Source: Candidatus Saccharimonadota bacterium (lineage in GTDB: Bacteria; Patescibacteriota; Gracilibacteria; BD1-5; UBA2023). From it: a DNA stretch of 32,000 nt. The stretch is taken from contig OY970170.1 in the NCBI GenBank assembly GCA_963706795.1, forward strand, positions 840,001-872,000, read 5' to 3'. The position numbers and the translations under genes were made by a program. Numbering within the stretch: position 1 is the first letter of the stretch; each line of letters begins with the position of its first letter. Shown one piece after another: positions 5,574 through 29,072 of the stretch. Under the pieces are notes generated by a model. The model was not told the DNA's origin. It searched no databases and saw only the letters and a list, made by a program, of their open reading frames with translations.

Positions 5574-6659
5574 TTATGCTGGCACCCTCCATGACTCAGC
5601 AGGAACTAAAAGTACATTCCCAATTTCTGCCCGAAACGAATTAATCTTACTTGCATCTGGTTGGCGCTTAGGGTAGATACGATTTGTTAGGATAACATAG
5701 GCTATGCCGAGATTTCGGTCGCAGACACAGAGTGTTCCGGTAAAGCCTGTTTTCCCGAAGGTTTTTGGAGTACAAAATTTGCCCATATAACGGGGCTGGT
5801 AAAGCTCCCATCAAAGCCCGGTAACTTCGCTTAAATGTGGAATTTGGTTTGATTCTATCTGCTGCATGATGCTTTCAGAAAAGTATGTTTTCCCATGGAA
5901 CGAACCTCAATGAAGGAGCATTTCAAGAAAATTCAAAATATCTCTTGCGTTCGAAAAGAGTCCCGCGTGTCCCATGACTTTTCCATGAGCGAACCAAGCG
6001 TGTGCACTCTCATCATGTACCACGCCTTGAACGAGTCCTCGATGTGCATCGATTTCTGTGGGTGGAACATTTTGGCGTTCATTCTTAGGAATGTGATAGG
6101 TTGTATTTTTCATCCCAAGTGGCTCAAAAAAAGCCTTGTGCGCAAGCTTATCGAGAGGTTTTCCATGTATACGCTCGATAACCCATCCTAGGAAAATCGC
6201 AGGCAAATTTGTATATCGGAATGTGCTACCAGGCGGAATGTCGAAATCTCGAGTAAGGAGAATTTCTTCAAGCTTTTTTGGATCATTTTCTCACAAGCTT
6301 GCAAGCCCATAGCCAGGTATGGTGTACGTAAGTAAGTGCTTAATTGTGACATTTGCCCTGTCTGAGTTTCGAAATTCGGGTATGTAGTCACACAGTCGAT
6401 CATCAAGTTTGAGTTTTCATTGATCGATGAGTTGGAGAGCAAGACTGCTCGTTGGAATGCTTTTAGTAATAGAAGCGAGATCGTAGCGAGTATCTGCTGT
6501 AACTTCCTGAGATCATTCTTCATAGGTGAATTTTCCGAAGGGCAGCACTTCTCTCGAGCCATCAAGATGAACAATTCCTATCGTACATCCAGGGAAAGTC
6601 TGATTTTGTATGGCATTTTGTACAATTGGAGCAATTGTTTGTTTCAAAGAGTCGAACAT
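5574..6659 (-). CDS. beta-lactamase-family serine hydrolase (class C / esterase-like), 361 aa, no signal peptide
   Basis: All three family motifs are present: SITK (SxxK), YTN (YxN) and KTG (GKTGFTG). Track ORFs 5574..5786 and 5907..6206 plus N-terminal segments join in one frame via 5 TGAs. TAA stop. Confidence 0.85.
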
Positions 6660-8230: not shown

Positions 8231-10495
8231 TTATTCGTCCGTCGATCTTTCTGCTAGAAATAGACATTTTCCAAGGATAGTCAGCATTAGCTCACGTTGC
8301 TTCTGTGCTGTTACGGCTGTTGGGAAATATTCTAAGATAGCATCAGTGGTAATTGAATCTTCGATAATCGAGCGTGTACCTTGATTATCGAAGATAGAAT
8401 CAATCTCATTTACTAATAGTACAAAGTCATTCCGTATGTGACTGGCGAATTCGGGGTTTGCTAGCACGAGGCTATCAAAACGCTCTTTAAGGGTTGAAAT
8501 TAACATATTTGCCATCTCTTCCAATTGGGCGGTATCGCCGAGCTCTTTGACAGCCAAAAGCCATAGACAATAGTATTTGGCAATGCCAATATGGGTTCAA
8601 TGCCTTTTCAAGTACTTCTCCCGAAGATATTTTTCAAGTATGGCTTTTGATCGGTCGAATATTTCTGTGTTCCCAGTTTTTAATCCATATAGCCCAAGGA
8701 ATCATAGAACGTCGAAGATATGTAGATTGGCATAATAGTCAGATAGCATCTCGGACGTTCCATTTCATATCACGACTGAGAGTAAACCAAGAACTTTTCG
8801 TATGTAATCTATGGCATTTGGTGTCAATGGGCTTCATCGAGATACCCTATAAGTGATTTCACCAAAATGCTTAACAATCAACGGCAAAAAGCTATCGAAC
8901 TCAATTCACTGTTTCGATCACTCCTTGAAGACCTCGGTGACGATGTCGATGGTATTTCTCAATCAGTTGAAATAAACGGTTTGTAGTGGGCTTGAATCGC
9001 CAGATAGAACTGTCCAGATAACCCCTCTATTCATTGAAAGATTAGTCCACAAAGCTTGTATGAGTTTGTTTAGGAATGCAGATGGGTCTACGCCTCGCTC
9101 TTTTGCTGATGTTATGAGCAAAAGATGGCTTTTTAGGGATTCCCATAAGATTCTATCGTAACCCCATAGGTCTGTTGTTGCTAGCTTCAGAATAAGTCCA
9201 ACGTAGACCTTGTGTATTTCCAGCGATGTCTTACCCGTTTTAATCTCCCAAGCTACAAGGAATGTTAACTTATCCAATAAGGTGTCTATATGCCCTAGGT
9301 TAACCTTTTTCGATATGAGTAAATTAATGAGCACTGCAGCATTCTCTTTCCACTGAAATAGTCATTCTTCGTTTCAGATTACTAGTAGTTTTTCGAACAA
9401 TCCAGCATACCTCATTAGCGCGTTCTCTAGGATGGGATTTGAATTCGGGAATATAGTTCCGGAATAGCGCACTTCAAACAGCTTATCCAGTGCGATTCTG
9501 TATAGTTTGAGACTTTCCAGTATGGCGTATACGTCACCCCTCTTAGCGTTTGAAAGTGCCAGATCTTCAAGCCTCTCGAAAAATCGGCTCAATAATCAAT
9601 CAATTTCAGAATCGTGGCTTCAGAGATAGTCTAGGTTGGGAATTAGTTTTATCTTTCAGTAAGCATCCATTAGATGGCAGAAGCACCTGCCGATGAGTCT
9701 TATATAATCCCTTGCAAGTGTGTATTCTTGAATGCCAATAAGTTTTTGCGTTCAATCAAATATGGATTCTAGCTTGTACCATCACGTATTGATGATTCTA
9801 TCTCAGTAACTTATCGGATCGAAAGATTGTTTATCGATGTCGGGTGTATTGAGGTACTGGACAAGGGATTTTTCATACTTGCTCAACGTCCGAATTATCC
9901 GAACGAAATATTCTTCTGCATCAGTAATTATTCAATGCGGTGATAGTTTCTGACTCGTGTTGTAAAAGGAGAAGAGGACTAGCCAGATTACGAATGATTC
10001 AACTCAGATAGATAGGGGTAGTAATATTCGATCTGGGCAAGCATTTAGAAAAAGAAAGTTATTGCCTCATAGAAAGAGGAATATCAACGTGAATATTCCT
10101 ATCGTCCCAGCTACATAATAGGTCTTTTTGTCGTTATTTGCATCAAAGATAACCGCTAGTGGCGCATAAGTTGCGAAACTTTGGATATAGAAAAAATGGA
10201 TGGTCAGAAGAAGTGCTAATATTGATCAGAACATTGAGCCTACCGTGGTGAAGTAGGCTGAAACATCTATCATATGGAAAAAATTGCGCCAAACCGAAAG
10301 TCCAATCAATAATAACGTCGTTAAAAATTGAATGAGTGTTAGAAATCTAAATCAGTTCTCAAATATGGAAGATATCAGCAGTTTAATTTGAAACCACTTA
10401 GTCCTTGTTTTGTTCCAAAGATCAACTTTAATAACTACTGTGTTAGCTTTGTGTTTCTGGTAGAAATTCACAACATCTTTGATGTATTTGCGCAT
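8231..10495 (-). CDS. large orphan membrane protein, 754 aa: about 4 N-terminal TM helices plus a roughly 560-aa alpha-helical soluble domain
   Basis: A single 755-codon frame from ATG 10495 to TAA 8231, with about 20 in-frame TGAs. It unites track ORFs 8231..8557, 8963..9334 and 9374..9592, all in the same frame. Hydrophobic segments: FLTLIQFLTTLLLIGLSVW, VGSMFGSILALLLTIHFFYI, YYVAGTIGIFTLIFLFLGG, ESFVIWLVLFSF. Confidence 0.7.
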
Positions 10496-10663
10496 AAATT
10501 TTTCTGACTATTAATCAGTATGCTATGCAATCAGCTCAATTTGTCTCGGCGGATTAAGTTAAGTTAACTTATACCAATGCAAAAATCGGCTTATTTTCCT
10601 CTGAATCGAAGTGGTAAGTAAGCTTTCTCTGGTGAGGAAAATGCGAGTATATGTATGTGACCG

Positions 10664-10725
10664 AATAGGCGTTTAATAGGCGTTTGAGAGGCTGGTGAAA
10701 AGACATCTCCAAAATATCTCCAAAA
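10664..10725. repeat. two short tandem direct repeats in the divergent intergenic region
   Basis: AATAGGCGTTT x2 (10664-10685). ATCTCCAAAA x2 separated by 1 nt (10705-10725). Confidence 0.7.
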
Positions 10726-10990
10726 CAACTCTATTTAAAAAAGACAGTGTCCTCTCAAATTCAACTGTCTTTTTCACGTGCCTTGGGTATATTTCCCTTG
10801 CCAGATTAACGATTTACGGAGTTTTATATCCCACGCACGATAGAGGGTAGATAGGCGGCTTGTATTCGCTTTCCGCTTTGTCCTTTATCGGGATTTCGTG
10901 GATCGTTAGTCTGGCGACTTATGAATACAAGTCGCCTTTTTATGTGCCTAACGTACGAGGCGATACCCAATTCTTAGCTATTTGCTTCAT

Positions 10991-11515
10991 ATGAACACAG
11001 AAATCACATTAAAACAAGCCATCATAGGGATGTTTGTCACCTTCGTCATCCTTGGAATAGCGGTGTTTAGCCTGACTCCTGACTATGTACCCTTGGATGA
11101 AATAACGCACAAATCATTTGATGCGACAAAACATTTAGCTGATATCGATTTTGCCGCGAAAACTGCAATAGAAATTTGTAATGTTGCCGCGAGCAAGAAA
11201 GAGAAATCAAAATGTCTTGTTGATGCAACGACTTTAAAAGAAAGAATGATGCCGGATCATAACGCAAGAAAGGAGACAGATGATATCATTACAACAAATT
11301 TCCAAGCTCTGGTAACTGAATGTAGAAATGGAGTGACTGGGAAAACCTGACACAGCGGATTTGCTTTTAAGAATGGTGAAATATGGTGAGGTGTTGATCG
11401 TCTAATTCATATAAGAGCTAATGTGGTAATATCCTGAGAGTCCACACGGTATACGTGCACTTGGAATGCAAAAAACCCTAACAATGTCTTTCTTGCGAGT
11501 GTAATTCAGTACTAA
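10991..11515 (+). CDS. membrane-anchored hypothetical protein, 174 aa
   Basis: ATG 10991 with an N-terminal TM segment (AIIGMFVTFVILGIAVFSL). Track ORF 10982..11350 continues in frame through 3 TGAs to TAA 11513-11515. Confidence 0.55.
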
Positions 11516-11556
11516 ACCTCCGCAAATAGCCGTATTCTTTATCTACCTTACACACT

Positions 11557-11730
11557 ATGGAATTATTTATCGTTTTCTTCGCAATTTATCTTGCTCCGTC
11601 CTTCGTTGTTATATTCAACCACAAGAAGCTTAATAAATGACCTGTGGTCATTGTAAATGTCTTTCTTGGGTGGACATTCGTTGGCTGGGTAGTTGCCCTC
11701 GCTATGGCGGCTTCAAATGATAAAGAGTAG
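11557..11730 (+). CDS. superinfection-immunity-like small membrane protein, 57 aa
   Basis: MELFIVFFAIYLAPSFVVIFNHKKLNK[G]PVVIVNVFLGWTFVGWVVALAMAA matches the Imm_superinfect pattern I recall (YxxPS...N..LGWT..GW..AL). One in-frame TGA. TAG stop. Confidence 0.65.
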
Positions 11731-11804
11731 TGCAAATGAGGGGAATTTTTCTGGAGAAACTTTTTGTTTTATGGCATACTGGAAAAATGTATGTCCTTGC
11801 ACGT

Positions 11805-11830
11805 AAAACCCTTGGATATCCAAGGGTTTT
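11805..11830 (+). terminator. intrinsic terminator hairpin
   Basis: AAAACCCTTGG-ATAT-CCAAGGGTTTT, between the immunity-like gene and the recombinase start. Confidence 0.6.
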
Positions 11831-11850
11831 AATCTTTTAATCTTCAAACT

Positions 11851-13737
11851 ATGGTGAATTCAAAAAAGTTTTCACAAACTACTCAAACTCCAATCTTTGC
11901 CTACCTTCGTAGGAGTACAAAAAAGGCTGAGCAGGAAAACTCTCTCATTCAGCAAGAAGATGGTATTCAAAGCCTCATCAGAAGGTTGGGTCTTGATGCT
12001 GATTCTGTGCGCTATTTTGCTGAAAGCCGGAGCGGATTTGAGAATAAGAAACGTCCAGAATGGACGGCGATGATGAGCGAGATTGATAAACTTGAAACAC
12101 CGTGCGTACTATTAGCACGTGATATTTCTCGTCTTTCTCGCAATCCTACGGATTCTCAGAAGATAATGGATCGACTCTATGGGGATAACAAGAAAAGACG
12201 GGTAATCGAGAAAATGTATTGTCTCGATTATGAAAATGTCAAAGAGTGGAATAAGGGTACAGATAAAGAAGAGGTGCACAGGGCTCTTTCTGCAAGCTAC
12301 TATGACAGCTTGGAGACTCGCAGGAAATCTATAGGTGGAATCCTTTTGCGACTAGAAGACGACCAGTTTCCATATGCCGCTCCAAAGGGACTTGATAAAA
12401 TCTCTCATCTCTGAAAAACCATTCTGAAACAGAATGAAAAAATGCCAATCGTCAGAAGAGCATTTGAAATGAAGACGGAGGGAAAGAGTCATAAAGAGAT
12501 ATCCAAATATCTTAAACAGTATGGGGATATCCGTATTTGAGATAGGACGTTAACGGATAGGTTATTCACCTACGAAGTTTATATTGGTAAATATACCGAG
12601 AAAAATACTGGAAAGCGCGTCACGAGCTTGGCATTTTTCGAAGGAAGACCACCCATTTCTCCTGAGTTATGGGATAGGGTACAAAAATGCTTAGGGAAGA
12701 AGAATTCTCAGTATTGAGAGGGGCAAAAAGATGATGTTATTGCTGAAAAGCTGAGAACTGAAAGTGGTAAGCGTATGTCTAAGTATTTCGCTAAGTGAAA
12801 GTATGCCCAGTACAAGAACACGATGGAGAAAATACACATAGCGGAAAAGGAAATCTTGAATCATTTTCAAAATACGCTTATTGAATTCCTTAATGATGCT
12901 TGGAAAAGGAATAGAAAGAAGGTGCGACGAAATATCAAATCCAGCTTCGAGTCATTATGTTTGGAAGAGGGATTGAAAGTTGTAGATAAGCCTGAGTGGA
13001 TAGCTTTCTTTCGTGAAGAGATTGAAATTAAATCGTCTTCACATTTGGAAAAACTCATAATATTGATTTGAAAAAATTCCTTGGAACGAAAGACAAAGAA
13101 TGATCCCTATCCCACCAAAGAAGAGTGTCTTGAGGCATCTAATAGCCTATGAATTGATCTGTGAGGAAGGGGACTCAAAGAGTACATCGAATATGAAGTA
13201 TGAAAAAGGCATATTGATGAGTTTGTGAACGCGGTAAAGAAAGAATTCAAGGAAAAAACCAAGGATTCTCGCAATATAATCGAGGATCAGTTGGTGGAAT
13301 TGCGCAAAAGAAAGGTTGGACTTGAAGAAGAAAGGAAGAGTTATAGAAAGAAAGCCCCAATAATGGGCTATTCGTTTGAAGAAATTAAAGAGACTACCGA
13401 AGAATACGATACCAATATTTCCCTGCTTGATTCAGAGATAGCAGAAGTGTCGCAGTCTACCCATATGGATAAATACTTAGAGCGGATTCCAGAAATATTG
13501 TGTTCGACTTTCGAACTCGCCAATTCTACCCTTACGGAAGCGGAGAAAGGTGAAAAGAAGGAAAATTTACTGAAGCTACTGGAATTAACCACTTTCGAAC
13601 TCACTGTAAACGACAAAAAAGAGCTTAAAGTAAAGCTCTTTGATGTACTAGATAGGCTAGTTTCCGATGATAAGTCACTATTGGAGGCACCACCCGGAGT
13701 CGAACCGGGCTACGGAGCTTTGCAGGCCCCTGCATAA
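11851..13737 (+). CDS. large serine recombinase (integrase), 628 aa
   Basis: N-terminal resolvase catalytic motifs are present (FAYLRRSTKKAEQENSLIQQ and DISRLSRN). A recombinase-domain region follows (PIVRRAFEMKTEGKSHKEISKYL.., ISPELWDRVQ), then a long coiled-coil-like Glu/Lys-rich C-terminus. Track ORFs 11851..12414, 12823..13071 and 13225..13737 share one frame joined by 8 TGAs. TAA stop at 13735-13737. Confidence 0.85.
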
Positions 13738-13755
13738 CCGATCTGCCATGGCGCC
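13682..13755 (-). tRNA. tRNA-Cys: tRNA-Cys (anticodon GCA), 74 nt, CCA encoded
   Basis: GGCGCCA-UG-GCA..UGC-A-GGGGC-CUGCAAA-GCUCC-GUAG-CCCGG-UUCGACU-CCGGG-UGGUGCC-U-CCA. Manual cloverleaf gives a 7-bp acceptor (one G.U), a 5-bp anticodon stem, a 5-bp T stem and a canonical UUCGA T-loop. Confidence 0.9.
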
Positions 13756-13882: not shown

Positions 13883-14437
13883 TTACTTCACGCAGGTAAA
13901 TGTTTTGAAAATTGCTTCGTATTTGGCAGTGTCCGGTGTTGAGTTGGCGAGACCGATGGTCATGAGGTAGACATCTTTGCCACAGAGCTTGGCAGTCTGG
14001 AGGAATTTTTGCTTCGGAGTCGCTTCCGAATATTGCGCCTCAAATGTCGTTATGAGCCCTTCGTCGTTATCTGCGTAACTAAACGTCGAATCATCAAGCT
14101 TGGTATACGCCTTGTAATTGCCGGTCGTAAGCGCGCTGTTGATGACCGCATATTTGCGAGAAGTCATGAGTGGGTCAGCATTTGATGCGAGTGTATCCTT
14201 GAGGATGTGGAGATTGTTCGCAAATCCACTACTTATATCAGAGGAGGTGAGGGCGAGCACAACAGAGCCGTTTTTTGGCTTTGGAAGTTGCGCGTCATCG
14301 ACCTTTGTCCAGGTTTTTGGGACTTCGATACTAAATCCTTTTCCCTCGAATTTTGAGAGATTTACATTGCTGGTGTCACTGCTTCCGCAAGAGACGAGGA
14401 GGAGCGCGAGGCTCGAGAGGAGGAGAATCTTTTTCAT
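13883..14437 (-). CDS. lipoprotein, 184 aa
   Basis: MKKILLLSSLALLLVS-C lipobox start at 14437. The longer track ORF start (14692) would overlap the upstream gene. TAA stop. Confidence 0.7.
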   Translation of the reverse strand: MKKILLLSSLALLLVSCGSSDTSNVNLSKFEGKGFSIEVPKTWTKVDDAQLPKPKNGSVVLALTSSDISSGFANNLHILKDTLASNADPLMTSRKYAVINSALTTGNYKAYTKLDDSTFSYADNDEGLITTFEAQYSEATPKQKFLQTAKLCGKDVYLMTIGLANSTPDTAKYEAIFKTFTCVK

Positions 14438-14439
14438 AT

Positions 14440-14796
14440 TTAACCTAAAAAACCAAATGAATGAGCGACAGCAGCCACAAAGATGAGACTGATGAGTAGA
14501 AGTACGATAAAGCGGAATTTTGCGGCTCCTTCTCCCGAAGTGGCGAGTCCGTAGGCAATGAGAGAATAGAGAAGCGTGCTGACTGCAAAATAAAATGCGA
14601 GCTTGCTGGCTCTCGCAAGTGGCGTACTGAGATTGGTATACAGTCCGCCAGCAGCGATCAGTGAGAGTGAAAAATAGAGCGCGGATACCCATGCAAAAAA
14701 CCTCTTTGCGATGAGAAGTCTCCTGCCGGTGAGGGCAAGATCCGATCCAGACACAGAGTTCTGTTTTGTTGTAAGAGTCTCGTTGCTTTTTTCCAT
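14440..14796 (-). CDS. small integral membrane protein, 118 aa
   Basis: Start MEKSNETL at 14796; 3 predicted TM segments; TAA stop 2 nt before the lipoprotein start. The longer track start would overlap gatC. Confidence 0.6.
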   Translation of the reverse strand: MEKSNETLTTKQNSVSGSDLALTGRRLLIAKRFFAWVSALYFSLSLIAAGGLYTNLSTPLARASKLAFYFAVSTLLYSLIAYGLATSGEGAAKFRFIVLLLISLIFVAAVAHSFGFLG

Positions 14797-14842
14797 GAAA
14801 TCTCTATGCTGAATGCATTCTAAAGCTTGATTATAGGAAGAA

Positions 14843-15136
14843 ATGGCCCTCACACAAGATCAAATCAAACACATTGCGAAGCTTTCACGCCTCGCGCTCA
14901 CAGACGAGCAACTCGAGCACTATCGTGGCAATCTCGACTCAATTGTTGAGTACATGGATATCCTTAAGAGTGTTCCAGCTGAGAAGCTTGCGGGACTCGA
15001 GACTTCAGGTCTTGAGCTTTTGCCGATGCGCGCTGACGAAGTACATGCTTCGGAGATTTCACGTGAAAAGCTCCTTGCGGTTTCTGCTCAAAAAAAGATT
15101 GCAGGTGCTATAGCTCTGCCAAATATCATGGGCTAG
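14843..15136 (+). CDS. gatC: Asp/Glu-tRNA(Asn/Gln) amidotransferase subunit C
   Basis: 97 aa. IKHIAKLSRLALTDEQLEHYRGNLDSIVEYMDIL..LPMRADEV is the typical GatC pattern. TAG stop. Confidence 0.85.
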   Translation: MALTQDQIKHIAKLSRLALTDEQLEHYRGNLDSIVEYMDILKSVPAEKLAGLETSGLELLPMRADEVHASEISREKLLAVSAQKKIAGAIALPNIMG

Positions 15137-15137
15137 C

Positions 15138-16238
15138 ATGCTCAGACAAACGACCCTCTATCGATTTAAGAATCATAGCGAACTCGGGCTTTCTGTCTCT
15201 CCGAGACTCATTATCAGTGGTGGTAACGGAGTAGGGAAGACCAATATCCTCGAGGCGATATATACTTCTATTAATGCGAATCCTCCTCAGGGGAGGACTT
15301 TTTTTGATCTTATTCAGGATGGGGAAGGTGCAGCATTTGTGCGCTCAGTGATTGAGAATACATCTGATTTGGCGCCCGAATATACGATCGCTTTTTCGGC
15401 GGATACTCGCAAGATGCAATGTCTCTTGCAGGGTTCAGTACTCTCACGTCCAAAATACCTCGCATCTCATGGACTGCGGGCTATGCTTTTTTTGCCAATA
15501 GAGATGAATCTCCTCTATTTGGGACCTTCACTGAGACGGGATTTTATTGATGAGACACTGCTTTTGGCATATGAGCCATTTACTAAGCTCAAGCGTGAAT
15601 ACTCACAGGTGCTTCGCTCAAGGAATGCTCTGCTCAAGCGTATCGCCGAATGAAAAACACCCGCGTCAGATCTCGATGCATGGGATCTCATATTTGCCGA
15701 AAAGGCTGCGCGCTATCTCGAATATCGATATTCTTTTATCGAGTTTCTTGAATCCAAGATCGACTTTATTGCAGAGATCGTGGGCGCAAAATACAAACTC
15801 CGACTCATCTACGAATCTAAAGCTGACCGCAAAAATCTGCTTGAGAGCATCAAAACTTACAATCGTGATCATCGCGAAAAAGACATCCTCGTAGGTCATA
15901 CTTGTATCGGTCCACATCTCGATGATCTCTCTTTTGAGGTCCAAACCCGACATGGATATATGCGAACAGAGTCTTTTTTGTCTCGTGGCGAAAATAAATC
16001 GATCCTTTTAGCGATCAAATTGCTCTCAATAGAATTTCTCGAATCTTCCTCAAATACACAGACGCTGTTACTGCTCGACGACATTGCCTCAGAGCTCGAC
16101 GAAGTGCATCTACAAAAGCTTTTTGATTACTTCGGTGATCGACCGTACATCCTCACGGGTCACACGGTTCCGGAGAGCATCAGGGCGAGAGAATGAACTG
16201 TAAATATGTATTTGAACGAAAACAGTAATTTTGTCTAG
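15138..16238 (+). CDS. recF: DNA replication/repair protein RecF, 366 aa
   Basis: Walker A region GGNGVGKTNILEAIY and signature region LSRGENKSILLAIKL..LLLLDDIASELD. Track ORFs 15138..15653 and 15780..16196 share a frame joined by TGA 15651-15653. TGA at 16194 is also read through, to TAG 16236-16238. Confidence 0.85.
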
Positions 16239-16310: not shown

Positions 16311-17990
16311 ATGAAACGATTGTTTGCAATCCTTGCTACCCTCACACTTGTAGCGAATTCGACGGGAGCACTCTATGCAGCAGATGCGGTTTCGGCTACA
16401 GATACAGACCATCTTGAGGTCACTGCGGTTGCAACAACCAATGTTGGAGAAGCTATCGACCTCACAGTCAAGGCAGTTGCCAAGGACGGATCAGTCGTAA
16501 AGGGCTACCTCGGAACAGTCTTTGTAATTGTCGACAATGACAACAAGGCAAAGGTTCCATACTCTGAAGGCTACACATTTACTGCTGCTGATCAGGGTCA
16601 GAAGACCTTCTCAAAGGGGCTCTCATTTACAAAGGAAGGAACATTTAAGGTAGTAGTTTCGGACTTTGATAAGCCAAAGATCGAAGGAAATGCAAAAGTG
16701 AAGGTTGGCGCAGGAGATGCACCAGCGGCAACAAGCAGTGGAGAACTCGTAACAATTACTTCTCCAGATGCTGGATCAACTGTTGGTAGCAAAGATCTCT
16801 CAGTAACTGGAACTACTAAAAAGAACTCAAAAGTACAGCTCTTCCTCAATGGAGCAAAGGCACTCGAGACACAGACAGATGATAAGGGAAGCTTTGTATT
16901 CCAGCTCAAGAATGTGGATCAGACAGACAATATTCTCTCAGTAAAAGTCCTCGATGGATCTGACAAAGTTATTGGTGAATCCGCTAAAACAAGTGTAAAG
17001 GTTGGATCAGAAGGACCAGCATTTACATCTATTACACTTACTGGCGGAGCTCTCAAGGATGCAACTGCTAAGGATACATATACTGCCGCTCCAGGTGCAA
17101 AGATTAAGGTATCCGTTGCCGCAGAAATCGGTCTCAAGGAAGTAACGGTTGCTATCGGTGAAACGGTAGAAGTCCTCAAGGAAGGTCTTCCTGGTACATA
17201 TGATGGTGAAATCAGTGCTCCAATGACTCCAGGAGTATCGCCACTCGATGTAAATCTCAAGAATTCTCTCGGAAAATCTACTCTCAAGTCTGCAGCCGCT
17301 AATGTAAATGTACAAGCTCTCGCTGTTGCATTTAAAAACGTTAAGGTTGAAAAGGGTGACAAGAAGGCAACATTTACATTCGATGTAGAAAATGAGCCAG
17401 CAGAAGTTGCAAAATTCCAATTCGACTATGCAACTGCTTCGGGTGCTGCGCAAAAGTCAGTAACCTTTGATAAGGCAAAGATCAAGACAGCAAGTGGTTC
17501 ATATAGCTGGTATGTTACAGGGCTTGATATTGCGAAATATGATTTCCAGATCTCTGGGATAGACGCAACTGGCAAGATCCTCACTGGAGCAACTTCTGAA
17601 TCTATTGAGGTTGATATGACTCTCGGATCAGCTCAGAGATGTATGATCTCAAACGTGAGTGGTATGAAGGTATCAACTGCTAAGGATGCAAGTACTCTCA
17701 GCTGGACATCAATTCCTGAGGCTATTGCTTACAACGTCTATAAAAAGGACGCAACTGGTCAGCTCGTATTTATCGAAGCGGTAAAGGCAAACAACTATGT
17801 TGTAAATCTCGCAGCTGGACCAGTTAAATATGATGACTTCGCAGTAAAGGCAGTATGTGCCGATGCTTCAGAGTCTAAGGACTTCTCGCCAACAACTCGT
17901 GTAAAAACGGGGCCTGCGCAGATATTCCTCATGCTCGCGCTCTCACTCGGTCTTGGATTTATCTTTATCCGCCGCAAGAAGCTCATCTAG
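16311..17990 (+). CDS. secreted cell-surface protein with Ig-like repeats and a C-terminal VKTGP + TM + basic-tail anchor, 559 aa
   Basis: Signal peptide MKRLFAILATLTLVANSTGALYA. The sequence is beta-rich and repeat-like throughout. C-terminus is ..TRVKTGPAQIFLMLALSLGLGFIFIRRKKLI. TAG stop, no in-frame TGA. Confidence 0.75.
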   Translation: MKRLFAILATLTLVANSTGALYAADAVSATDTDHLEVTAVATTNVGEAIDLTVKAVAKDGSVVKGYLGTVFVIVDNDNKAKVPYSEGYTFTAADQGQKTFSKGLSFTKEGTFKVVVSDFDKPKIEGNAKVKVGAGDAPAATSSGELVTITSPDAGSTVGSKDLSVTGTTKKNSKVQLFLNGAKALETQTDDKGSFVFQLKNVDQTDNILSVKVLDGSDKVIGESAKTSVKVGSEGPAFTSITLTGGALKDATAKDTYTAAPGAKIKVSVAAEIGLKEVTVAIGETVEVLKEGLPGTYDGEISAPMTPGVSPLDVNLKNSLGKSTLKSAAANVNVQALAVAFKNVKVEKGDKKATFTFDVENEPAEVAKFQFDYATASGAAQKSVTFDKAKIKTASGSYSWYVTGLDIAKYDFQISGIDATGKILTGATSESIEVDMTLGSAQRCMISNVSGMKVSTAKDASTLSWTSIPEAIAYNVYKKDATGQLVFIEAVKANNYVVNLAAGPVKYDDFAVKAVCADASESKDFSPTTRVKTGPAQIFLMLALSLGLGFIFIRRKKLI

Positions 17991-23665: not shown

Positions 23666-24901
<1,236 letters not shown>

Positions 24902-26450: not shown

Positions 26451-27227
26451 TTATCGTGCGAGCCGCTTCCTAAAAACTATGAGTGCTCCAACTCCGAGAG
26501 AGAAGAGGATCATGAGAAGTGTCTGGACTGGTCCAGTCTTCACACTCGTTACTTTAGAGGTATTGATCGAAGCTGTCTGCATATCGCCACAGACTGCAGC
26601 TATCTTGAAGTCCTCATATTTTACAGCTCCGCGAGCGAGATATGCTGTATAGATCGGACTCTTTACTCGCTCAATAAATACAAAGTCACCGGATTTTGTT
26701 CGCTTCATAACGTCATATCCGGCTGCACCGGCAACTTCTTTCCAACGAACGACGGTTTTTGTATCTTGCTCCTCAGTTTGGATGATATCAATTGCAGGAA
26801 GTTTACATTCTGGTGCGCTATTGAGCACAGGGGTTGTTGATCCTGCAGTATTGCTTACTGGTTTTGGAGTACTCGTGGTTGTAGTTGTAGCAGTGGGAGT
26901 CTCAGGAGTTTTTGTAGTTGTAACTACAGGTGTTGTTGTTTTTGGAGGAGTAACTACTGGCTTTGGTGGTGTGACTGTTGTTGCAGGAGAAGAAGTCGTA
27001 GGCTTTGGTGTCACAACGGGTGGTTGAGTATTTGAAGTACTCGGAGTTGTTGGAGTGGTTGATCCGGTGCTGGATTCGATAGATTTTGCAAAATCTGCCA
27101 TAAAATCCTCTGCGCTCATTGGAGCGCTTGCGGCACTCGCAAGGAAGAGTACAGAACCCACGAGGAGTGTGGTTCAGGCAGTAACTCCGAGGGCAATGAT
27201 TTCTTTATTTGAAAAACGAGCGCGCAT
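26451..27227 (-). CDS. secreted surface protein with a Thr/Pro-rich linker and a C-terminal VKTGP + TM + basic-tail anchor, 258 aa
   Basis: Start MRARFSNKEIIALGVTA[G]TTLLVGSVLFLASAASA (signal peptide; one in-frame TGA upstream of the track ORF start). About 85 aa of T/P/S/V-rich sequence. C-terminal module is homologous to that of 16311..17990. TAA stop. Confidence 0.75.

Positions 27228-27594: not shown

Positions 27595-29072
<1,478 letters not shown>

Follow-up and report, generated by a model that had tools for sequence, protein, structure and literature searches.

A candidate variant of the sortase cell-wall sorting signal at the C-termini of secreted proteins in code-25 Gracilibacteria

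The stretch of DNA analysed here (hereafter the window) spans 32,000 nucleotides of a Gracilibacterium that uses genetic code 25, in which TGA stands for glycine. It encodes two secreted proteins, A and B, with the same C-terminal end: a folded domain, a short motif, a hydrophobic helix and a basic tail. An independent protein family, C, detected in related loci, has the core of this motif as well. With moderate confidence we read the tails of A, B and C as a lineage-specific variant, [ST]-x-V-x-T-G, of the sortase cell-wall sorting signal in code-25 Gracilibacteria. The signal is most likely used by at least three secreted-protein families, among them the core surface protein A. The initial annotation of this DNA had suggested a lineage-specific anchoring system. 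Its tripartite layout of motif, helix and tail is real and specific to the lineage. Nonetheless the tails are better explained as a variant of the known LPXTG signal than as a new class of anchoring system, because in two family C members a canonical LPATG occupies the same alignment columns as the variant, and because the curated LPXTG and NPXTG models align with the tails in register from their T.

The shared C-terminal domain and its motif

Comparison of A with B by BLASTP yields a single alignment with 47/122 identities (39%), one gap and an E-value of 2e-24 (A 462-582, B 146-267, in the numbering of the stop-to-stop open reading frames (ORFs)), a similarity far beyond chance. The initial annotation had described the two C-termini as alignable along their whole length, and both this alignment and the coordinates and sequences given for the two ends hold up. 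The two conserved cysteines that it pointed out are kept across a wider family as well: in an alignment of 37 sequences column C7 is conserved in at least 90% and column C79 is invariant. The pair, in A C444 (17640-17642) and C516 (17856-17858), probably forms a disulfide. Common to A and B is also the layout of the extreme end, consisting of (R/S)VKTGP, two residues, a hydrophobic stretch of 16-17 residues and an R/K tail of six residues. Protein A ends in TRVKTGP-AQ-IFLMLALSLGLGFIFI-RRKKLI and B in TSVKTGP-VQ-TLLMILFSLGVGALIVF-RKRLAR.

Modelled with AlphaFold2, the C-terminal 141 residues of A are predicted to form seven strands and then one long helix at the end (modelled residues 119-140), with mean pLDDT values of 82-96 per 10-residue block in the core of the module. 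When this model was compared with the PDB using Foldseek, the top matches were FN3 (fibronectin type III) domains (7jgu with an E-value of 1.2e-5, 4u3h and 3mpc; E-values 1e-5 to 1e-4) at target-normalised TM-scores of 0.61-0.72. Judged by the model, the shared module is an FN3-fold domain with a predicted seven-strand beta-sandwich. At the sequence level Pfam fn3 (PF00041) gives no match for A or B at E <= 10, only a weak GH85_C match lying over the module, and a sequence search of the PDB with protein A yields no match at E <= 1. A profile of the module finds 6945 proteins at E <= 0.001 among 1.84 billion representatives. The best 150 of these are mostly giant proteins with multiple FN3 repeats that match the domain core alone; about 45 of the same 150 match the whole profile at their extreme C-terminus and comprise A orthologues of 530-583 amino acids (aa), B-like proteins of 250-320 aa and fragments. 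Mapped on A, the model places T-R-V-K in the last beta-strand and T-G-P-A in a four-residue connector, with the helix starting at the next Q. The motif of A is thus predicted to straddle the end of the FN3 fold.

The conservation of this motif was assessed on a pooled set of 65 distinct A/B tails, including A orthologues from 46 loci of a genome collection, with positions counted from the T of T-G. Position -4 is T in 55/65 and S in 7/65 tails, position -2 is V in 62/65 and I in 3/65, and position -1 is Q in 41/65, K in 13/65 and R in 11/65. The T itself is present in 64/65 tails, G at +1 in 65/65 (two of them printed as W through code-4 gene calling) and P at +2 in 63/65. The motif is [ST]-x-[VI]-[QKR]-T-G-P, and its degree of conservation equals that of the core Trp, Tyr and Cys of the fold. 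The ending proposed at first, (R/S)VKTGP with a helix and a basic tail, is found as written in A and B, but the conserved motif is longer and its K position is variable, Q being the commonest residue there. Between the G and the hydrophobic stretch lie 3-4 residues; the stretch measures 16-20 residues and is followed by RR or RK and the end of the protein. An SxxxG-like pattern in the helix belongs to the family consensus, S and G each being present in at least half of the tails. A profile of the 40-aa tail has no match at E <= 10 in a set of 5.8 billion proteins, where it is too short to reach significance. According to the initial annotation, absence of the motif from orthologues, or its restriction to two paralogues in a genome with no sortase-like enzyme, would speak against a sorting signal; V or I, T, G and P are conserved throughout the orthologous tails as counted above, and the restriction to two paralogues does not hold either, given the independent family C with its T-x-V-A-T-G, transmembrane (TM) helix and RRKL.

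Family C and the sorting-signal models

We translated the related loci with table 25 and screened every ORF for an end made up of a hydrophobic stretch and a basic tail. In locus L017 this revealed family C as a stop-to-stop ORF of 349 residues holding a protein of about 335 aa, which is composed of a signal peptide, a Pfam fn3 domain, an immunoglobulin-like (Ig-like) domain, a low-complexity linker and the end ATATEVATGAKEN-LIILAALLLSLGIVYIY-RRKLI. An A orthologue is encoded in L017 too, placing both types on one contig. Homologues of family C were found in the protein database and on 16 metagenome contigs, all recoded. They end in A-T-x-V-A-T-G-[AT]-[KQG]-[EAT]-N, a TM helix and R[RK]KL. T-x-V-A-T-G is fixed in 13/15 distinct tails, and the linkers vary in length and sequence. 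In the AlphaFold2 model of one member (P0157) the segment that contains the motif, residues 234-275, has pLDDT values below 50 and lies about 35 residues past the last folded domain. The motif of family C is therefore, as far as the model goes, no domain-end strand and is predicted to lie outside any fold.

The two most divergent members of family C, L067 and L068, come from separate assemblies of different samples (L067 and the protein of L017 share 53% identity over 335 aa) and are the only ones with a canonical LPATG. They read D-A-K-A-L-P-A-T-G-T-K-E-N in the columns where the others have A-T-K-V-A-T-G-A-K-E-N, with the same helix and tail. Since both fill the same alignment columns, x-V-A-T-G is the positional equivalent of L-P-A-T-G, with V in place of P and a Thr at -4. 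The change from P to V requires two nucleotide substitutions. Away from ORF C-termini, [ST]x[VI]xTG occurs 48 times in 863,293 six-frame ORF residues, and the chance expectation is about 6e-4 per 10-residue juxtamembrane window, so that a coincidental agreement between family C and A/B is unlikely. Throughout about 0.86 Mb of related DNA, the ORFs with a terminal TM helix and basic tail are those of A, B and C, polytopic DedA/VTT and VKOR proteins, and others that are polytopic-looking or spurious by inspection.

Scores against the curated models agree with this equivalence in their register. The isolated 40-aa tail of A scores 17.4 bits on TIGR01167 (LPXTG_anchor), above the cut-off of 15.9, and 4/5 isolated family C tails pass the same cut-off with 17.0-18.4 bits (fragments of 40-53 aa). 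Matches to LPXTG_anchor at E <= 1 are obtained for 16/37 A/B tails. On TIGR01167 the alignment sets in at the T of TG and never takes in the LP portion of the model, and Rumino_NPXTG also aligns from its T. Neither L-P-x-T-G nor a named P/A variant of it is found in A/B, where the second position is V (62/65) or I (3/65) and the first K, R, S, N or H. Two other hallmarks of a sortase substrate are present: T-G lies ahead of a hydrophobic segment and a basic tail at the extreme C-terminus, and both A and B have an N-terminal export signal by inspection. PEP_CTERM (15.6 bits, cut-off 16) and Loki-CTERM (16.0 bits, cut-off 19.9) stay below their cut-offs and cover helix and tail only. Other sorting-domain models, including Heimdall-CTERM, match weakly, the best E-values ranging from 0.0079 to 0.89. 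The tails do not reach the cut-off of any PEP-CTERM, GlyGly-CTERM or archaeosortase-type model.

Some observations concern the surroundings of family C. In L067 (172-837) and L068 (5980-6597, both on the minus strand) the LPATG-type gene is preceded by a type IV pilin-like gene with an N_methyl motif, and in L068 a FtsW/RodA gene comes after it. In L052 (about 13979-15079) DsbA-like and VKOR genes are located about 7 kb from the family C gene, and L063 and L064 contain a VKOR-like ORF with the same C-terminus.

Sortase substrate, plain anchor or another enzyme

If the tails are sortase signals, Sec would export the protein via its N-terminal signal, after which the C-terminal hydrophobic helix and the RRK tail would keep it membrane-bound, with its motif on the outer side. 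A membrane-bound transpeptidase of the sortase family would then cut between T and G and join the Thr carboxyl to a peptidoglycan precursor; enzyme, cleavage and wall linkage are what we infer. A peptidoglycan context is suggested by Mur ligase and FtsW/RodA genes near family C genes in related loci.

Several points weigh against this interpretation, and the search for the enzyme supplies some of them. No sortase was found in the 32-kb window. None was detected either in the 0.86 Mb of related loci using phmmer with S. aureus SrtA, TLxTC-type patterns and a broader His...Cys...Arg pattern, a weak negative as these loci are repeated samples of a few neighbourhoods. The best phmmer match (8.9 bits) is a coiled-coil-like ORF and is not credible. 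A Pfam scan of the neighbours of the LPATG-type genes gives a type IV pilin-like protein, FtsW/RodA, a GmrSD/HNH nuclease and a PD40 repeat protein, and no sortase. In favour of a sortase, one has been reported for a closed Gracilibacteria genome (PMC6851277; the supplements of that paper leave sortase unmentioned), and within the candidate phyla radiation (CPR) sortases are reported in more than half of the genomes (PMC6744442). Outside Microgenomates, however, they are reported as patchy (PMC6744442), whereas the motif is invariant in every genome we sampled. A literature search returned nothing relevant on VKTGP, VQTGP or VATGAKEN motifs, on LPXTG in Gracilibacteria or on a sortase in Absconditabacteria. 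On the side of the substrates, full-length A and B score 12.4 and 7.5 bits on TIGR01167, below its cut-off, and reach no other NCBIfam sorting-domain cut-off. Their motif lies next to no wall-spanning spacer, and in A the predicted last FN3 strand, T-R-V-K, is only four residues away from the helix.

The last of these points, together with the lack of a sortase in the sequences searched, fit a plain type I membrane anchor, which we regard as a serious rival, especially for A and B, and as possible rather than probable. The helix would hold A and B in the cytoplasmic membrane and the RRK tail would be a positive-inside stop-transfer signal. T-x-V-x-T would then be the last FN3 strand and G-P a strand-to-helix breaker that couples the domain to the membrane; in family C, V-A-T-G would be the relic of a former LPATG. 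In line with this the V and K of the motif fall within the predicted G strand, leaving only T-G-P-A before the helix. Unrelated giant proteins supplied 1282 internal FN3 repeats for comparison. Just 56 of these extend in the alignment across the columns of the motif, with T at -4 in 46%, V at -2 in 45%, T at 0 in 48%, G at +1 in 30% and P at +2 in 54%. Hence T-x-V-x-T..P is a generic ending of the FN3 G strand and partly explains the motif. Within A itself, two internal Ig-like domains terminate in KVKVGAGDAP (aa 126-137) and SVKVGSEGP (aa 247-259), both similar to its final V-K-T-G-P, so that a strand followed by Gly and Pro recurs at the domain boundaries of A. The generic FN3 ending and these domain ends together keep a plain anchor alive as an explanation for A and B. 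The conserved SxxxG-like pattern of the helix would moreover be pointless in a segment that is discarded. Two parallels point the same way. C. difficile CbpA (CD3145) has NVQTG, a helix and a charged tail and was proposed to carry a sortase motif, but SrtB does not cleave its NVQTG in vitro (PMC4155245, PMC4371152, PMC5569036). For the CPR bacterium Mycosynbacter, plain C-terminal helix anchors have been proposed for PamR, an FnIII protein, and for the chaperones PamC and PamD (bioRxiv 10.64898/2026.03.03.709456). Against a plain anchor stands the Gly at +1, which is invariant in the A/B tails as opposed to the 30% in generic FN3 endings and is left unexplained by such an ending. Family C further keeps T-x-V-A-T-G inside a variable and predicted disordered linker that is free of the constraint of a fold. 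A neutrally decaying LPATG is not expected to arrive at the motif of A/B, nor to stay fixed in 13/15 tails, and the register with the sortase anchor models also argues for a sortase signal.

Alternatively, a non-sortase enzyme (a rhomboid or rhombosortase, an exosortase- or archaeosortase-like enzyme or another protease) might read the T-x-V-x-T-G strand and release or re-anchor the protein. We consider this very unlikely. The tripartite layout is common to all such systems, and the motif lies just 3-4 residues from the helix. Its T, V and T alternate at i, i+2 and i+4, as they would on one face of a beta-strand, whereas the LPXT substrate of sortase A adopts a kinked conformation unlike an extended strand. 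The sub-threshold matches to PEP_CTERM, Loki-CTERM and Heimdall-CTERM could be added in its favour; however, these cover helix and tail only, below the curated cut-offs. The direct equivalence with LPATG in family C points to a sortase instead, and no rhomboid or exosortase gene was seen in the window.

A further possibility is that an anchoring machinery, be it a sortase with a new mode or another enzyme, has been retuned to the strand-like T-x-V-x-T-G in place of the kinked L-P-x-T-G and covalently anchors A and other secreted tail-anchored proteins. The motif itself may then derive from the closing strand of an FN3 domain. To us this seems rather unlikely. If such a machinery exists, it would provide the first experimental handle on the envelope of these bacteria: Gracilibacteria belong to the CPR (Patescibacteria) and are uncultivated, recoded and probably host-dependent, and their surface proteins presumably mediate cell contact. 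The preferred reading as a sortase signal would have consequences of its own. Surveys based on LPXTG would miss the surface proteomes of the lineage, and the recognition range of sortases would widen to V at the Pro position without Leu. LPATG and T-x-VATG within one family would form a natural pair for studying the evolution of specificity, and A would rank first among the candidates for an envelope or attachment component that is anchored to the wall. If the helix is a membrane anchor only, the module is an ordinary membrane-proximal FN3 domain.

Genomic setting and related systems

The features of both genes are given in Table 1. Gene A is coded by 16311-17987 with a TAG stop and has no in-frame TGA. 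Its signal peptide shows, by inspection, a basic n-region, a hydrophobic core and an A-x-A-like end, and Pfam Big_7 matches the protein at aa 147-211. Gene B is coded by 26454-27227 on the minus strand with a TAA stop. Inspection of its N-terminus gives a basic n-region and a hydrophobic stretch of 23 residues, for which a cleaved signal and a signal-anchor are both possible. The sole in-frame TGA of B (27174-27176, minus strand, codon 18) falls within this hydrophobic export signal, and a table-11 call of B would begin downstream and drop the signal.

Table 1. Coordinates of genes A and B and of their parts in the window.
Feature	Position	Strand	Basis
Gene A, 559-aa secreted protein with several Ig-like domains	16311..17990	+	ORF, translation
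Predicted N-terminal signal peptide of A (MKRLFAILATLTLVANSTGALYA), then AD	16311..16379	+	Inspection of sequence only
C-terminal FN3-fold domain of A (predicted), aa 444-532	17640..17906	+	AlphaFold2, Foldseek, Cys conservation
Motif T-R-V-K-T-G-P of A, aa 529-535	17895..17915	+	Secondary-structure mapping, frequencies in 65 tails
C-terminal hydrophobic helix of A (IFLMLALSLGLGFIFI), aa 538-553	17922..17969	+	Sequence and AlphaFold2 helix
Basic tail of A (RRKKLI), then TAG stop	17970..17987	+	Sequence
Gene B, 258 aa: hydrophobic export signal, Thr/Pro-rich linker, FN3 domain, motif, TM helix, basic tail	26451..27227	-	
N-terminal signal or signal-anchor of B	27123..27227	-	Inspection
Thr/Pro/Ser-rich low-complexity linker of B, aa 53-133	26829..27071	-	Translation
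FN3-fold domain of B (predicted), aa 141-230, homologous to that of A	26538..26807	-	BLASTP, alignments
Motif T-S-V-K-T-G-P of B, aa 227-233	26529..26549	-	Sequence
Hydrophobic helix (TLLMILFSLGVGALIVF) and basic tail (RKRLAR) of B	26454..26522	-	Sequence

The genetic code follows from several sources. Under table 25 the summed ORF length of the window is about 2.6 times that under table 11. In-frame TGA codons occur in genes with full-length Pfam matches (3 in PheRS alpha, 5 in a beta-lactamase-like protein, 5 in HtrA and 2 in RecF); the Pfam-verified window genes contain 2-8 each (for instance 1210-2469, 5574-6659, 15138-16238 and 23666-24901) and stop exclusively at TAA or TAG. Homologues called under code 4 print W exactly where the window protein has a conserved G, as in SKWLSFTKEW against SKGLSFTKEG, and TGA therefore encodes Gly (code 25). 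The relatives from the genome collection are all labelled as Gracilibacteria, 'Peribacteria' or Patescibacteria metagenome-assembled genomes and show the same recoding as the window.

The neighbours of A and B are housekeeping genes: the order in the window is recF, A, rpsT and rplT, then yidD, PAP2, dedA, ymdB, htrA, hisS, B and the 16S rRNA gene. The genome collection was scanned, with one genome per species, using a close alignment of seven sequences as seed (the 37-sequence alignment was too diverse for this purpose). It yielded one A orthologue on each of 46 loci (L004-L049), with a module identity to A from 73% down to 33%. Around A the block gatC-recF-A-rpsT-infC-rpmI-rplT is conserved (no gatC was detected in the window), and the synteny with recF and rpsT is also present where it can be checked (L001, L002 and L070). 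It is unusual to find a surface protein in a housekeeping block and with orthologues on 46 loci, and this points to a core role of A in the envelope. In L001 (GCA_964388475.1, 8013-9773 and 9860-10618) the last 205 or so codons of the A orthologue are present twice, about 230 bases apart, owing either to an artefact of the assembly or to partial duplication in tandem. Homologues of the B type are P0001, P0002, P0005, P0012, P0034, P0066 and P0073; the B orthologue adjoins hisS in L002, and in L007 and L012 it is found near that of A.

Two other regions of the window are worth recording. A large serine recombinase with Resolvase and Recombinase domains (11851-13737) overlaps with its 3' end a tRNA-Cys gene on the opposite strand (13682-13755). 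Upstream of it are a multi-TM ORF of 754 aa (8231-10495, minus strand) and an ORF of 174 aa, both without a Pfam match, and the region 8231-13755 may be an integrated mobile element. The 16S rRNA gene (27596-29071) is solitary: the rRNA genes appear unlinked, because neither a 23S rRNA gene nor a spacer tRNA is found in the 2.9 kb beyond it (to 32000).

Among known systems GVDTG_CTERM (NF058571.1) resembles the present tails by its name, which suggests a C-terminal sorting domain of the V-x-T-G type followed by helix and tail. Synthetic probes place GVDTG at about positions 5-9 of its profile and the start of the helix near 26, so that about 17 residues separate the two, compared with 3-4 in our tails. 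With a score of 12.8 bits against a cut-off of 29, over the helix only, and with this difference in spacing, the name was rejected for our signal. The proteins of the Pam pilus (PamR, PamC and PamD) are also surface proteins of CPR bacteria and likewise combine FnIII or Ig-like domains with a TM helix at the C-terminus. Unlike them, A and B do not lie in the context of a pam operon, and descriptions of PamR mention no conserved juxtamembrane motif. The PamR model (NF058578.1) was also dismissed as a match: A reaches 18.8 bits where the cut-off is 300, over aa 147-244 only, reflecting weak Ig-like similarity. CbpA differs in that its NVQTG concerns one protein in one species, whereas here the motif is fixed across a lineage and present in independent families.

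A precedent for the replacement of Pro by a small aliphatic residue is offered by the class E sortases of Actinobacteria, which read LAXTG signals with a matching change in specificity. In that case the Leu is kept; here it is lost, V takes the place of P and the lineage is a code-25 member of the CPR. From the LPXTG signals described by TIGR01167 our tails differ in having V or I for P at position 2 in 65/65 A/B tails and V for P in 13/15 family C tails. At the L position they carry varying polar residues, with a Thr conserved four residues upstream instead, and the motif of A/B overlaps the predicted last strand of a folded domain, lacking a flexible spacer. The likeness to LPXTG extends over the remainder of the arrangement: an export signal, T-G placed 3-4 residues before a hydrophobic segment of 16-20 residues, a short R/K tail, a model in register from the T, and LPATG itself in the same columns of two family C members.

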